Origin: a virus
Lineage: Duplodnaviria; Caudoviricetes
IMG/VR virus record: IMGVR_UViG_3300030376_003158
Span: 1-39,499 of that record
DNA: 39,499 bases
Direction: 5' to 3' (one strand)
The notes beneath the pieces were generated by a model, which was given only the letters and a program-made list of their open reading frames with translations, did not search any database and was not told the origin of the DNA. This document shows, piece by piece, positions 5,443 through 23,598 of this stretch. The position numbers were made by a program, and so were the translations under genes. Each line of letters starts with the position of its first letter. Position 1 is the stretch's first letter.

Positions 5443-6172
5443 CATGACTACGTTTACGCTCGCTAAAGTAATGACCATTCTCGCACATGTATTGTTTATA
5501 CTCTATACCAGATTTAGTTCTTCTGTTGCCACGTTTTTGAAACTTAAATGAGCCACACCTAGGGCATACTAAATCTTGACACTCAGCTGTCAAAACATTT
5601 GGATGGCTCTTGACAAACGGGAGAATACGTTTGTAGACTTTACGTAGCAGTACTACGTCTTGGCGGTTGTATTTTTTCATTGATGCCCACGCTTTACGGT
5701 TACCGCTCATACACCCTAACCACATCTTAAAGCCTTGATGCTCTACTTTCTTGCCTAGTTTTAAGTGCTGGCCTAACGAGTCTAAGTTGTTAGCGTTAAA
5801 CTGGAACGCTGACCTAGCCATCTTTAATGTGTCTATAGAGATGTAAGGAGTTGGCGCTCCCATATCATGTGCTACAAACCTAGCGTTTAGTTTCTTTAGA
5901 TCAAACCTATCACCGTTGTGGGCTACCACAAAATCTGCTTTATCTAAAAGATCCCACACTCTAGTAAGCAACTCTTTGTCATCACGATAATCATATTTCG
6001 TAACGTTCTTAGGGTACACGTCTTTGACTTTGCCTTCATGTTCCCACATGTAGCACATTCCTAGTAGTCGCCATTCCTGTATAAACTCAATAACGTTCTG
6101 GTCCCACTTACCCCACGTATAGCCTACGTTAGGTGACGTCTCAATGTCAAGATAAAGAATTTTTGCAAGCAT
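5420..6172 (-). CDS. RNase H-like (DEDD) 3'-5' exonuclease with C-terminal zinc ribbon
   Basis: ExoI LDIETS, ExoII AHNGDRFD, ExoIII YNRQDV; CPRC...CENGH at the C-terminus. Confidence 0.85.
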   Translation of the reverse strand: MLAKILYLDIETSPNVGYTWGKWDQNVIEFIQEWRLLGMCYMWEHEGKVKDVYPKNVTKYDYRDDKELLTRVWDLLDKADFVVAHNGDRFDLKKLNARFVAHDMGAPTPYISIDTLKMARSAFQFNANNLDSLGQHLKLGKKVEHQGFKMWLGCMSGNRKAWASMKKYNRQDVVLLRKVYKRILPFVKSHPNVLTAECQDLVCPRCGSFKFQKRGNRRTKSGIEYKQYMCENGHYFSERKRSHVNSAANP

Positions 6173-20762: not shown

Positions 20763-20777
20763 CGCCACCGCAGCGCT
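20763..20777 (+). repeat. 15-mer cassette-boundary repeat, copy 1
   Basis: CGCCACCGCAGCGCT. Confidence 0.85.
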
Positions 20778-21033: not shown

Positions 21034-21312
21034 CTACCTTAACGGTTCCAGTGCTAGTAACACCTGCATTGATGGTATCTGTCTAGACGGGTGCCTAGGG
21101 TCATTTTCCATCTCATCTATCTCCGCAATAAATGCGTCATAGAATCTGCGGTAGTCAAACCTGTCGTTGTCCGCATAGCACATGTCGGCTATGGATTCAA
21201 CAACGGGCACTATGTTGGCTAGCTGTTTCGCTAGAGCCTTGGAGCCGTAAGGCTTCGTTGGCTTGGCTAGTGCTTCGGCTAGTGCTTGATAGTGTTTCCT
21301 GCTCATTCCCAT
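21034..21312 (-). CDS. Hypothetical phage early protein
   Basis: MSRKHYQALA...DNDRFDYRRFYDA, a pattern common in small phage proteins; AAGGAGG SD. Confidence 0.75.
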   Translation of the reverse strand: MGMSRKHYQALAEALAKPTKPYGSKALAKQLANIVPVVESIADMCYADNDRFDYRRFYDAFIAEIDEMENDPRHPSRQIPSMQVLLALEPLR

Positions 21313-21342: not shown

Positions 21343-21386
21343 TCCCCCATTCTGTTGCCAACTCTAGGGGATTGAGTCCGAGTCTT
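21343..21386 (-). ncRNA. Candidate pseudoknot RNA motif, copy A
   Basis: AAGACUCGG-ACUC-AAUCCCCUA-GAGU-UGGCAACAGAA-U-GGGGGA. Confidence 0.6.
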
Positions 21387-21429
21387 GCGGAGCCTTTACA
21401 CTTGCGCTACTCCCTCACTCTTGCATTGA

Positions 21430-21669
21430 TTAGCCCTGTTGTAGTATGTCGGCTAGCATTCGTAATATTTCTACTGCGACTGCTTTAGCGTCTACCACTT
21501 CATGACGGTCATCAAGTTGGATTGCTACTTCGTCCTTGATGAGATCCGTAAGACCATCAATGTCGTCAACGTCAATATCAAAGTATGCTTCGGCAGTATT
21601 AACAGTTACATCCGTAACTTCTACTTCTACTTCTACTTCAACACAATCGTCAAGATTGATGTAAGGCAT
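21430..21669 (-). CDS. Highly acidic hypothetical protein
   Basis: GAGGAGG SD; VEVEVEV tract; first gene after promoter 21701-21725. Confidence 0.7.
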   Translation of the reverse strand: MPYINLDDCVEVEVEVEVTDVTVNTAEAYFDIDVDDIDGLTDLIKDEVAIQLDDRHEVVDAKAVAVEILRMLADILQQG

Positions 21670-21700
21670 ATATTTTTCCTCCTCTCTTTGCTATATACCG

Positions 21701-21725
21701 ATTGTAGCACATATATATACCGTTT
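21701..21725 (-). promoter_or_regulatory. Leftward early promoter (extended -10 TGC-TACAAT)
   Basis: AAACGGTATATATATGTGCTACAAT. Confidence 0.7.
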
Positions 21726-21728
21726 ACC

Positions 21729-21748
21729 TGTGGATAACCTGTGGATTT
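21729..21748. promoter_or_regulatory. Tandem DnaA boxes
   Basis: TGTGGATAA (perfect TTATCCACA) at 21729-21737 and TGTGGATTT at 21740-21748. Confidence 0.55.
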
Positions 21749-21861
21749 CGTGTTTTTTAGAATTTCTTTTGTCTGCAATTCAAGGGCTTATTTAATGACA
21801 CACATTAAATCAACTTGCTGTTTGTCTACCAAATGGTAGAGAGATAGTGCCCCAACATGTC

Positions 21862-21876
21862 CGCCGCCGCAGCGCT
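21862..21876 (+). repeat. 15-mer cassette-boundary repeat, copy 2
   Basis: CGCCGCCGCAGCGCT. Confidence 0.85.
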
Positions 21877-21994
21877 GAGACTTCTCTAATACATAGACCT
21901 TGTATTTTGCTGTATTTGTGTTACATTTGTGTTACAATCCCACCGTTAAAATCGCTGTTCTTGATGCGATTATCGTCTTTTTTGTGGTAGGTGG

Positions 21995-22022
21995 TTGACT
22001 CTCTATATATATGGGCTACATT
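21995..22022 (+). promoter_or_regulatory. Rightward sigma70-type promoter
   Basis: TTGACT-N16-TACATT upstream of SD AAGGAGG and ATG 22059. Confidence 0.5.
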
Positions 22023-22058
22023 GAGAACTCAACCTATTAACTGCGAAGGAGGCAGATA

Positions 22059-22466
22059 ATGCTAGATATATACAACCATCAAGTGGCTGAGGGGGTGTAT
22101 TCAGAGTATGAGCGTGTGCCGTCATTTATGACAGAGGAGCACAGTGGAGGCGCCCTAATAGAGATGGGTGACTTGTGCATAGCCCACTACTGTGATTGGG
22201 AACCCTACTCTCTGTGCTACTACACGGGCAGTATGAGAGACACCCATTACAACCCATCACATAGGTGGTATTACTTCAAGACAATTCAAGGCGGTTACAC
22301 CTCATGGAACCCGCACAGAATACTATCAATGAAAAGAGTGATGGCTAGACCCGACTATCACGTGCACGAGGCTATCTCAGAGCGTGCCTCATGGGTCCTG
22401 CCTAAGTCTGGCAGGTTCAGCTTAGCCAATGCTGAAGCGTGGGTACACGAGTACCTTACAAGCTAA
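22059..22466 (+). CDS. Hypothetical Tyr/His/Trp-rich protein, lone rightward gene in the early region
   Basis: AAGGAGG SD, own promoter and terminator. Confidence 0.75.
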   Translation: MLDIYNHQVAEGVYSEYERVPSFMTEEHSGGALIEMGDLCIAHYCDWEPYSLCYYTGSMRDTHYNPSHRWYYFKTIQGGYTSWNPHRILSMKRVMARPDYHVHEAISERASWVLPKSGRFSLANAEAWVHEYLTS

Positions 22467-22470
22467 CTAC

Positions 22471-22516
22471 AAGCGTCTCCCGTCTACTACATGGTAGGCG
22501 GGGGCGCTTCTTTTTT
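22471..22516 (+). terminator. Intrinsic terminator, rightward
   Basis: AAGCGTCTCCCGTCTAC...GTAGGCGGGGGCGCTT stem then CTTTTTT. Confidence 0.8.
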
Positions 22517-22531
22517 CGCCGCCGCAGCGCT
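22517..22531 (+). repeat. 15-mer cassette-boundary repeat, copy 3
   Basis: CGCCGCCGCAGCGCT, extended by CAGATC as in copy 4. Confidence 0.85.
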
Positions 22532-22565
22532 CAGATCCCCCTATTCTTGGGCTAAAAGAAAAAGT

Positions 22566-22613
22566 CCTTTCTCCCCTTTTTCTGTTGCCAAGGTGGGGAA
22601 CCTCCGAGTCTTA
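22566..22613 (-). ncRNA. Candidate pseudoknot RNA motif, copy B
   Basis: AAGACUCGG-AGGU-UCCCC-ACCU-UGGCAACAGAA-AAA-GGGGA. Confidence 0.6.
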
Positions 22614-22632
22614 GTCAGTATCCTCTAGGTTG

Positions 22633-22884
22633 TCAGTCTAGAGGGGCTGGCCCGTAGCCAACAAACTTACTTTCGTAAGCTTGATGACCAGCCACTTCGT
22701 TGTCACAGTAGTGACCCCAGAAGCAACTGTAGGTAACGCCGTCTTCGCTGGCTATGTGCCAAGCTACAAACGGATCGTTAGTGCTAAAGTGTGCTAGCAC
22801 CTTGCCGATGAACTTTTGTTCACCTGCCCTACCGTAACCAATTTCACAACGAATTACCGTTGCGCCATTTGATAGTGTAATCAT
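22633..22884 (-). CDS. Hypothetical protein; start revised to 22884
   Basis: MITLSNGATVI...PFVAW...CFWGHY; SD GGAAGGAG. Confidence 0.7.
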   Translation of the reverse strand: MITLSNGATVIRCEIGYGRAGEQKFIGKVLAHFSTNDPFVAWHIASEDGVTYSCFWGHYCDNEVAGHQAYESKFVGYGPAPLD

Positions 22885-23093
22885 GCGCTGTCTCTCCTTC
22901 CTACCACTGGCTTGAGCTATGTGGTGTCCTCTTTGCATGCCCCTATTATATACCCTTTAGCCCAACTGATCGCCGTCAATTTCGCTGTTCTCACCGTCAA
23001 TTTCGTTGTACCCCTACATATAAGGCTATATATGGGTAGATCTGAGATATCTTTAATCTGGTCAAGGTGACTAGTGGCAAGCCCAAAATACCA

Positions 23094-23108
23094 CGCCACC
23101 GCAGCGCT
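23094..23108 (+). repeat. 15-mer cassette-boundary repeat, copy 4
   Basis: CGCCACCGCAGCGCT followed by CAGATC. Confidence 0.85.
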
Positions 23109-23130
23109 CAGATCTCTCAGTGTTTAGGAC

Positions 23131-23160
23131 AAGAAAACCCCACCCTTTCGGGTGAGGCTT
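23131..23160 (-). terminator. Intrinsic terminator, leftward
   Basis: Minus strand GCCTCACCC-GAAA-GGGTGGGGT then TTTCTT. Confidence 0.8.
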
Positions 23161-23166
23161 CCTGTC

Positions 23167-23292
23167 TTAGTGCACGTGTCTGGCACCGTCTGGGATTATT
23201 CCCAGTGCTAGCCCTAGTGCGGCTACGGATGCTAGCGTCATAAACACTAGCCACACTGTGTCATTGTTCATTATGTCTATTAGCTTCTTCAT
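23167..23292 (-). CDS. 41-aa single-TM microprotein; not in ORF track
   Basis: MKKLIDIMNNDTVWLVFMTLASVAALGLALGIIPDGARHVH; SD AAGGAAG; terminator follows. Confidence 0.6.
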   Translation of the reverse strand: MKKLIDIMNNDTVWLVFMTLASVAALGLALGIIPDGARHVH

Positions 23293-23301
23293 ATACTCAC
23301 T

Positions 23302-23351
23302 TCCTTTCTCCCCCTGTTCTGTTGCCAAGTCGGGGGCGACTCCGAGTCTTA
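23302..23351 (-). ncRNA. Candidate pseudoknot RNA motif, copy C
   Basis: AAGACUCGG-AGUC-GCCCCC-GACU-UGGCAACAGAA-CA-GGGGG. Confidence 0.6.
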
Positions 23352-23371
23352 CTCATTTGCCAGCTCTGGAC

Positions 23372-23575
23372 CTACCTCTTGAAGGTCATGCCCAGCACTT
23401 GTTGCCCGTAGGCTACAAGATACTGTTGCGTGACATCCACTAGATCCTCATCACTGAGGGACGAACCGTTTCGTTCCTCAAATGCTTCAGAGCCAAGCAT
23501 ACGGAACACAGTGTTCGGATGTGCTTCTTGCTTAAGAGCCATCTTTAGCACTGCATTTAGTTGCTGTCTTGTCAT
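23372..23575 (-). CDS. Hypothetical protein, first gene of the leftward arm; start revised to 23575
   Basis: SD AAGGAGGT before ATG 23575. Confidence 0.7.
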   Translation of the reverse strand: MTRQQLNAVLKMALKQEAHPNTVFRMLGSEAFEERNGSSLSDEDLVDVTQQYLVAYGQQVLGMTFKR

Positions 23576-23598
23576 CTGATTACCTCCTTCCAATATCT

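Follow-up and report, generated by a model that had tools for sequence, protein, structure and literature searches.

What is a short knotted RNA, present in three copies on one strand, doing between the small genes of a phage? The window analysed here, the whole 39,499-nucleotide (nt) stretch of IMG/VR virus record IMGVR_UViG_3300030376_003158, is a 39.5-kb tailed-phage record, and an earlier note on its letters had described minus-strand copies of a pseudoknot-like motif at 21343-21386, 22566-22613 and 23302-23351. On the evidence of sequence and pairing, the knot is pseudoknot 2 (PK2) of transfer-messenger RNA (tmRNA), the RNA by which bacteria rescue ribosomes; it is a known fold and not a new one. 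New here is the stand-alone use of this known RNA domain, with a function that we infer. The free-standing copies, which lie behind the stop codons of short phage genes, may be anchors that hold ribosomes in cis by docking on ribosomal protein uS3; we put this tentatively, at slightly less than an even chance.

All three copies were present where described, with the paired variable stems ACUC/GAGU, AGGU/ACCU and AGUC/GACU and the CCCC/GGGG complementarity of an H-type pseudoknot. The pseudoknot helix was stated as 4 bp and proved to be 5-7 bp, and the true start of the motif lies 4-5 nt further 5', with a hairpin (YGA-N-UNAGA-N-UCGG) that had been overlooked. The element consists of this UNAGA-loop hairpin (P0), CGG, a stem (P1), the pseudoknot helix and the loop UGGCAACAGAA. 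In copy 1 (copy C of the earlier note; minus strand, 23310..23355) P0 occupies 23355-23343 with a UAAGA loop, P1 is formed by 23341-23338 and 23331-23328, CCCCC at 23336-23332 pairs with GGGGG at 23314-23310, and the loop UGGCAACAGAA runs from 23327 to 23317. Copy 2 (formerly B; minus strand, 22572..22618) has P0 at 22618-22604 with a C.C at the loop-closing pair, the P1 stem AGGU/ACCU and a pseudoknot of UCCCC (22599-22595) with GGGGA (22576-22572); beyond it lie a weak hairpin and a U-rich tract that reaches about 22553. Copy 3 (formerly A; minus strand, 21343..21390) has a divergent P0 (CCG..CGG, CAAGA loop), P1 ACUC/GAGU and a 7-bp pseudoknot of 21371-21365 with 21349-21343.

Exact occurrences of AAGACTCGG in the window numbered three and those of TGGCAACAGAA four, the fourth (5521-5531) being a bare 11-mer within the DNA-polymerase exonuclease open reading frame (ORF), without stem or 5' part. 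At up to one mismatch TGGCAACAGAA gave seven matches against 0.9 expected; AAGACTCGG at one mismatch, taken alone, gave five against 6.3 expected and was not above chance. A covariance model trained on 43 copies from phages and metagenomes, including one embedded in a tmRNA (L177), recovered the three window copies at E-values of 7e-18 (a training member), 1.8e-15 and 1.1e-5 (both outside the training set). No fourth full copy was found in the window by this model, the next match being the bare 11-mer (E 0.002).

Pattern scans of viral, metagenome and genome contigs gave 236 distinct anchored matches, 105 of which passed the stem and pseudoknot filters; locus L197 was excluded as a probable chance match. 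About 100 distinct homologues were obtained from unrelated viral and metagenome contigs, a phage contig carrying 1-5 copies. Family members made up 26 of 119 loci in the scan with the fewest constraints; with an estimated 900 or so matching stretches in the collection, this extrapolates to roughly 200 IMG/VR contigs. These searches were anchored on the loop sequence, which hides other loop types. Variants of the loop carried CAC for CAA, and CCG or CAU for CAG.

The covariation score of 43 equal-length copies was 0.489 against 0.162 after shuffling; none of 500 shuffles reached it, and all slid controls were lower. The P1 and pseudoknot pairs varied on both sides and the four outer P0 pairs on one side only. 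The loop-closing pair of P0 was Watson-Crick in 27 of the 35 copies left free by the query (G-C, A-U, C-G or U-A; 10.7 expected), and the -1/+1 position was G-U in 107 copies and G-C in two. Single-strand z-scores of -1.2, 0.5 and 0.2 are unremarkable and ViennaRNA cannot fold pseudoknots; the structure therefore rests on covariation and not on energy. Because all three helices covary, the motif is taken to be RNA, and the reading of a structured cis RNA on the sense strand was borne out by covariation and strand position. A DNA site, which the earlier note would have favoured for copies in either orientation, fits poorly: the copies stand on the sense strand behind ORFs, and double covariation with strand bias makes such a site very unlikely. 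A GCAA-tetraloop mini-hairpin in the long loop, present in minimum-free-energy folds, was dropped because natural variants break it without compensation.

Identification came through homologous loci. Scanned against Rfam, the window and a single copy gave chance matches only, and the remark that the motif belongs to no named family holds for the stand-alone element; it does not hold for the knot, which is the 3' end of the RF01849 alpha_tmRNA consensus, with the same succession of CGG, stem, UGGCAACAGAA and pseudoknot. At loci L250 and L271 the motif ends a two-piece tmRNA, and the top 23 matches of the model in 151 Pseudomonadota genomes were all tmRNA 3' ends. One review gives the last knot of two-piece tmRNA the name PK2 (PMC3985003). 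This knot is terminal in alphaproteobacterial two-piece tmRNA and internal in some one-piece tmRNAs: the same loop stands directly after H5 (the stop-codon helix) in the one-piece tmRNAs of L587 and L551/L593, and a close variant is likewise internal in the tmRNA of Streptomyces phage Jay2Jay. The knot therefore caps nothing in these molecules. P0, whole or in part, is also present in the phage tmRNAs of L188, L250 and L271. Covarying stems 1 and 2, the 5' CGG with UGGCAACAGAA, and a 5' hairpin downstream of a stop codon, all features of tmRNA PK2, were found in the element. An alignment of the phage UNAG with E. coli U131-G134 was dropped, since those bases are the 3' strand of H5.

The window has no tmRNA or tRNA gene (none by ARAGORN; no match to RF00023 or RF01849 in the genome), and a tRNA-like domain with tag frame, as in RF00023, RF01849 and RF04321, was not found in it; its copies are therefore free-standing. 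As only 4 of 105 members had an upstream tmRNA by ARAGORN, most other copies are free-standing as well. One copy compared by blastn with 50,697 named phage records gave three chance matches. With the model, no copy was found in five named capsid relatives (Jasmine, Shocker, DS1 and two Manatee Spring records; one 13.6-bit partial match) or in 81 genomes of the phylum of G005; 101 genomes of the phylum of G004 gave weak matches only, and among 101 genomes of the phylum of G002 strong matches occurred only in G002 itself. No free-standing tmRNA PK2 was found in Rfam or in the literature covered, which did not extend to the original two-piece tmRNA papers. Six supplementary files of a large phage RNA survey (PMC10690425) held no match; files 1, 2 and 4 lay outside this search and may hold the motif.

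Several related structures were recorded beside the family. Loci L581 and L582 (near 1450-1540) are alphaproteobacterial two-piece tmRNAs with two tandem PK2-type knots, the first having C-G where phage copies show G-U at the base of P1. L551/L593 (G002:C92:3229-3598) is a one-piece tmRNA with an apparently very short tag frame, in a genome with a second tmRNA and two free-standing motif-like matches. The UAAGA-loop hairpin also occurs without the knot, in an apparent three-way junction and mostly before a terminator-like hairpin (L342, L358, L375, L405, L324, L401, L421, L327 and L409); four of these loci were scanned without an Rfam match, and several follow a gene whose end resembles that of T4-type single-strand-binding proteins. 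From its sequence this hairpin looks like a reusable T-loop-like module. At 1490-1750 of L140 and L154 a motif-like knot with a longer loop opens a conserved structured region of about 200 nt without an Rfam match, near a second repeated hairpin before Shine-Dalgarno (SD) sequences.

For the analysis of gene context, 5 doubtful and 4 tmRNA-embedded members and those with less than 200 nt upstream were left out, which left 89 copies, falling into 65 clusters. Of the 89, 79 had a same-strand ORF of at least 45 codons within 70 nt upstream, as against 21% of 2212 random positions; the mirror test of the upstream ORF gave 17/88. The gap between the stop codon and GACUCGG showed two modes. In the first (24/89) the stop is a UAA or UGA inside P0, much as H5 contains the tag stop of tmRNA; some of these ORFs arise by chance and close at a stop within the motif itself, but nine exceed 100 codons. 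The second mode, at 19-25 nt, held 31 of the 89 copies against 2.6% of random positions, and 22 of the 39 clusters that do not belong to the first mode (p 1e-12 relative to a uniform distribution); such a gap places the start of P0 11-17 nt past the stop. The model found 11 further copies in whole contigs shared with known members, six of them at 19-23 nt (the register of one of the 11 is uncertain). Gaps of 26-41 nt occurred in 5 of the 89 copies, and a hairpin start 2-10 nt after the stop in only 2 of 79.

A recoding signal, stimulating stop-codon readthrough or a frameshift, would suit an H-type pseudoknot downstream of a stop, the knot starting 7-11 nt after it in 24/89, but the gaps of the 19-25-nt class fall in all three frames without preference (9, 9 and 13) and the frame recloses within 12 codons in 16 of 31, which leaves that explanation hardly credible. 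The genes themselves gave no common theme. Upstream ORFs had a median of 91 codons and were unrelated, 49 of 58 being without a PHROG family and the rest mixed, and in lineage L206 the motif follows a tRNA with no ORF. In L282 and L446 (also L294, L305 and L395) the motif stands directly behind a 461-amino-acid (aa) gene that PHROGs lists as an RNA-binding protein (DUF2828/DUF7788), with the stop in the hairpin and a U tract behind the knot. This diversity bears on the proposal that the element is a binding site for some other protein that also binds tmRNA PK2 (S1, for example, or a decay or termination factor) and marks early transcripts. Strong loop conservation across unrelated phages agrees with it, as does the capacity of S1, stated in a review, to interact with the pseudoknot ring of tmRNA (PMC3968760). 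The stop-codon spacing is left unexplained by such a site, and no neighbour gene is shared among the 65 clusters; we regard it as improbable.

On the downstream side a terminator or U tract was found in 21 of 88 copies and an SD-led ORF within 60 nt in 24; 45 had neither by strict rules, several of these showing hairpins by eye. Twelve of the 88 stand directly before an intrinsic terminator. Terminators begin 0-28 nt behind the knot, with no overlap. Of the 31 copies of the 19-25-nt class, 4 had a terminator or U tract, as against 15 of the 31 with the stop in or beside the hairpin (p 0.005). The earlier note had offered an antiterminator or ligand sensor among its candidate functions. A riboswitch or antiterminator acting on the downstream gene or terminator would agree with the compact pseudoknot, the conserved loops and the 24 copies before an SD, and a switch could arise if UCGG alternated between the 5' hairpin and pairing with the UGG of the loop. 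The element is, however, tied to upstream stops and not to downstream starts; neither a 5'-untranslated position before related genes nor an overlapping expression platform was found, downstream terminators and SDs begin after the knot, the neighbours are unrelated, and the same knot is structural in tmRNA. We therefore consider regulation of this kind very unlikely.

Processing was the other suggestion of that note that did not hold up. Several copies between small phage genes and a short conserved core with variable stems might suggest a self-cleaving ribozyme, or a processing site at which early polycistronic RNA is cut; CUGA with GAA recalls the hammerhead, and U-GG-CAA the hepatitis delta virus (HDV) ribozyme. 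HDV-like ribozymes are nested double pseudoknots with P3/L3 between the P2 5' strand and the P1 3' strand, and the motif has only 0-3 nt at that place. Hammerhead permutations require CUGAnGA and GAAA blocks beside stems I-III plus a cleavage-site block (PMC10085705), but the motif has the consensus YGA-N-UNAGA and GAA-N and lacks these blocks and a cleavage-site stem. No Rfam ribozyme matched the motif, other ribozymes lay near it only in L268 and L461, and tmRNA keeps the knot attached. Cleavage is thus most unlikely, and likenesses to hammerhead, HDV, pistol, twister and known riboswitches were rejected.

Ribosome binding is absent from the candidate functions of the earlier note, and it is the reading toward which spacing and tmRNA geometry point. 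In the E. coli structures, each of the three trans-translation states shows PK2 bound to the KH2 domain of uS3 by way of a C-A-A-A stretch of its loop, nt 183-186 making the contact (PMC8363625). These nucleotides are CAAA at the start of the long loop of PK2, and the phage loop has CAAC there. The resume codon, which occupies the A site once translocation has taken place, lies 15 nt upstream of H5. The CAA or CAC of the phage loop would make the uS3 contact as E. coli PK2 does, at a docking site that would flank the mRNA entry channel. When the stop codon occupies the A site, P0, 11-17 nt further on, would keep its fold immediately outside the helicase site, like H5, and the phage mRNA would offer the ribosome the shape that tmRNA offers there. 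A ribosome held in this way might be re-used on the short early gene or on the next cistron, yielding more early protein; as side effects the element might occupy the site where tmRNA docks and shield the message at its 3' end. From stop-to-P0 spacing and tmRNA geometry together we infer the cis anchor, which accounts for terminal, intercistronic and terminator-backed copies and for both spacing modes. The fuller proposal, that unrelated phages took the docking domain of tmRNA for cis use, as a 45-nt uS3 anchor one ribosome footprint behind the stop that retains ribosomes on early mRNAs, boosts translation and blocks tmRNA, is plausible but falls short of probable.

Several points weigh against the anchor. 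The uS3 contact is known only for E. coli PK2, which has a different loop, and the mapping of CAA is an alignment by eye. A review has PK2-4 serving mainly in folding and maturation, and it cites work whose title states that single strands can stand in for three of the four knots (PMC3968760); PK2 may accordingly be a weak anchor. The stop-to-knot gap in tmRNA ranges from about 5 to 50 nt, docking needing no single spacing; the gap of window copy 3 is 45 nt, and the L206 copies follow a tRNA with no ORF. The terminator control, in which 0 of 14 terminators in the same viral loci begin in the matching window, is small. The apparent invariance of the loop is partly built in by the loop-anchored searches. 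Finally, a protective cap would give the same spacing peak if deletions shrink the spacer to the edge of the ribosome.

Such a portable cap, a compact knot that stops 3'-to-5' exonucleases (PNPase, RNase R, RNase II), corresponds to the nuclease block of the earlier note and is still a strong rival, possible though rather less than probable. It would fix the end of the message or shield the upstream cistron of an operon, as repetitive extragenic palindromic (REP) hairpins do, with a spacer just long enough to avoid melting by the terminating ribosome. The copies are always 3' of a gene, those of the 19-25-nt class mostly lack a terminator, and hairpins 2-10 nt after the stop are rare. In two-piece alphaproteobacterial tmRNA the knot ends 206-213 nt from the 5' end of the coding piece, and the mature S. 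meliloti coding piece is described as 214 nt long and highly stable (PMC2873474). A tRNA lies behind the knot of L271 and a T-arm module in 4 of 89, from which RNase P could leave the knot as a 3' end. As a separate observation, the four loci (L460, L461, L472 and L267) have tRNA-like acceptor plus T-arm modules directly 3' of the knot, and a cut there by RNase P would make the knot the 3' end. The cap fits less well with the identical loop of internal PK2 in one-piece tmRNAs, with the 12 copies that already own a protective terminator hairpin, with a conserved, covarying hairpin on the 5' side, away from the incoming exonuclease, and with the scarcity of 26-41-nt gaps, an upper edge sharper than for terminators. 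Of the copies whose stop falls within the hairpin or next to it, 15/31 already have a terminator or U tract and a cap adds little there, which speaks for the anchor; anchor and cap can both be true.

In the window, replication genes occupy the minus strand; those for terminase, portal, capsid and tail are on the plus strand. A WhiB gene, and a capsid protein 34-35% identical to capsids of Arthrobacter, Microbacterium and Cellulosimicrobium phages, suggest an actinobacterial host. The three copies sit between the two gene arms in a run of short minus-strand cassettes (promoter-like site, small ORFs, terminator), a layout from which the transcripts are taken to be early. All ORFs of this run named here are on the minus strand. 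The stop-to-GACUCGG gaps are 23, 22 and 45 nt for copies 1, 2 and 3, agreeing with the 20-45 nt first reported. Upstream of copy 1 is ORF 23372..23593 (73 aa from TTG, with a later ATG after a GGAGGU SD; no PHROG or Pfam family), and the SD of a 41-aa ORF (23167..23292) directly abuts the copy, as had been noticed, which makes it intercistronic. A terminator-like hairpin with U tract at about 23131-23160 follows that ORF by inspection, unlisted by the terminator scan. Copy 2, correctly said to precede a U tract, follows ORF 22633..22938 (up to 101 aa; no family above cut-off). Copy 3 lies behind an acidic 79-aa ORF (21430..21669; strong SD) and, with a 92-aa ORF (21034..21312) that has an SD 30 nt behind it, is intercistronic also, giving two of the three copies in that position.

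Two further features of this region were recorded. The string AGCGCTGCGGYGGCG occurs four times, always on the minus strand (20763-20777, 21862-21876, 22517-22531 and 23094-23108; 0.02 expected), three of the sites being about 150-180 nt before a promoter-like GGTATAYA site. It was present in 23 of 635 fetched loci, apparently close relatives, and is possibly a binding site for a phage protein heading each early cassette. The cassette-sized interval 21880-22520, behind one AGCGCTGCGG box, has several hairpins and a 135-codon plus-strand ORF without family, and no convincing minus-strand gene; it is possibly a non-coding RNA or an origin.

A domain of a core housekeeping RNA thus works as a portable part in about 200 IMG/VR contigs, by extrapolation. 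At 45 nt the element is easy to make, and the role of tmRNA PK2 and the holding of ribosomes from the 3' side by bacterial mRNAs are directly testable. As anchor or as cap it would be a small, useful expression part, and if the uS3 anchor is true it would be a bacterial counterpart of plant-virus 3' translation enhancers.

Among known systems, REP stem-loops, terminator hairpins and viral exonuclease-resistant RNAs are 3'-stabilising structures. Like them the phage element is structured, 3' of a gene, and terminal or intercistronic; no relation of sequence or fold to them was found, and to our knowledge they have no fixed spacing to the stop codon. With PK2 of RF01849 (last 40 positions) the element shares CGG, a 3-5 bp stem, a 5-7 bp pseudoknot helix, UGGCAACAGAA, a hairpin directly 5' and a location 3' of a stop codon. 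It differs in having no tRNA-like domain or tag frame and in sitting behind ordinary protein genes. The 5' hairpins differ too: that of the phage element is a UNAGA pentaloop on a stem of 4-5 bp in which CGG takes part, and the bacterial one is longer and stops short of CGG. The phage tmRNA of L188 has both a stop-codon hairpin and the motif hairpin, so the latter is H5-like in position but not always H5. The H5-PK2 region of one-piece tmRNA (RF00023; for E. coli, PMC8363625) likewise has UAA in a hairpin loop directly before an H-type knot with CAA in the long loop, and its post-translocation spacing of 15 nt from A site to hairpin is close to that of the phage element; its loop sequence in E. 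coli is different. The tmRNA domain works in trans on a stalled ribosome; the phage element would act in cis.

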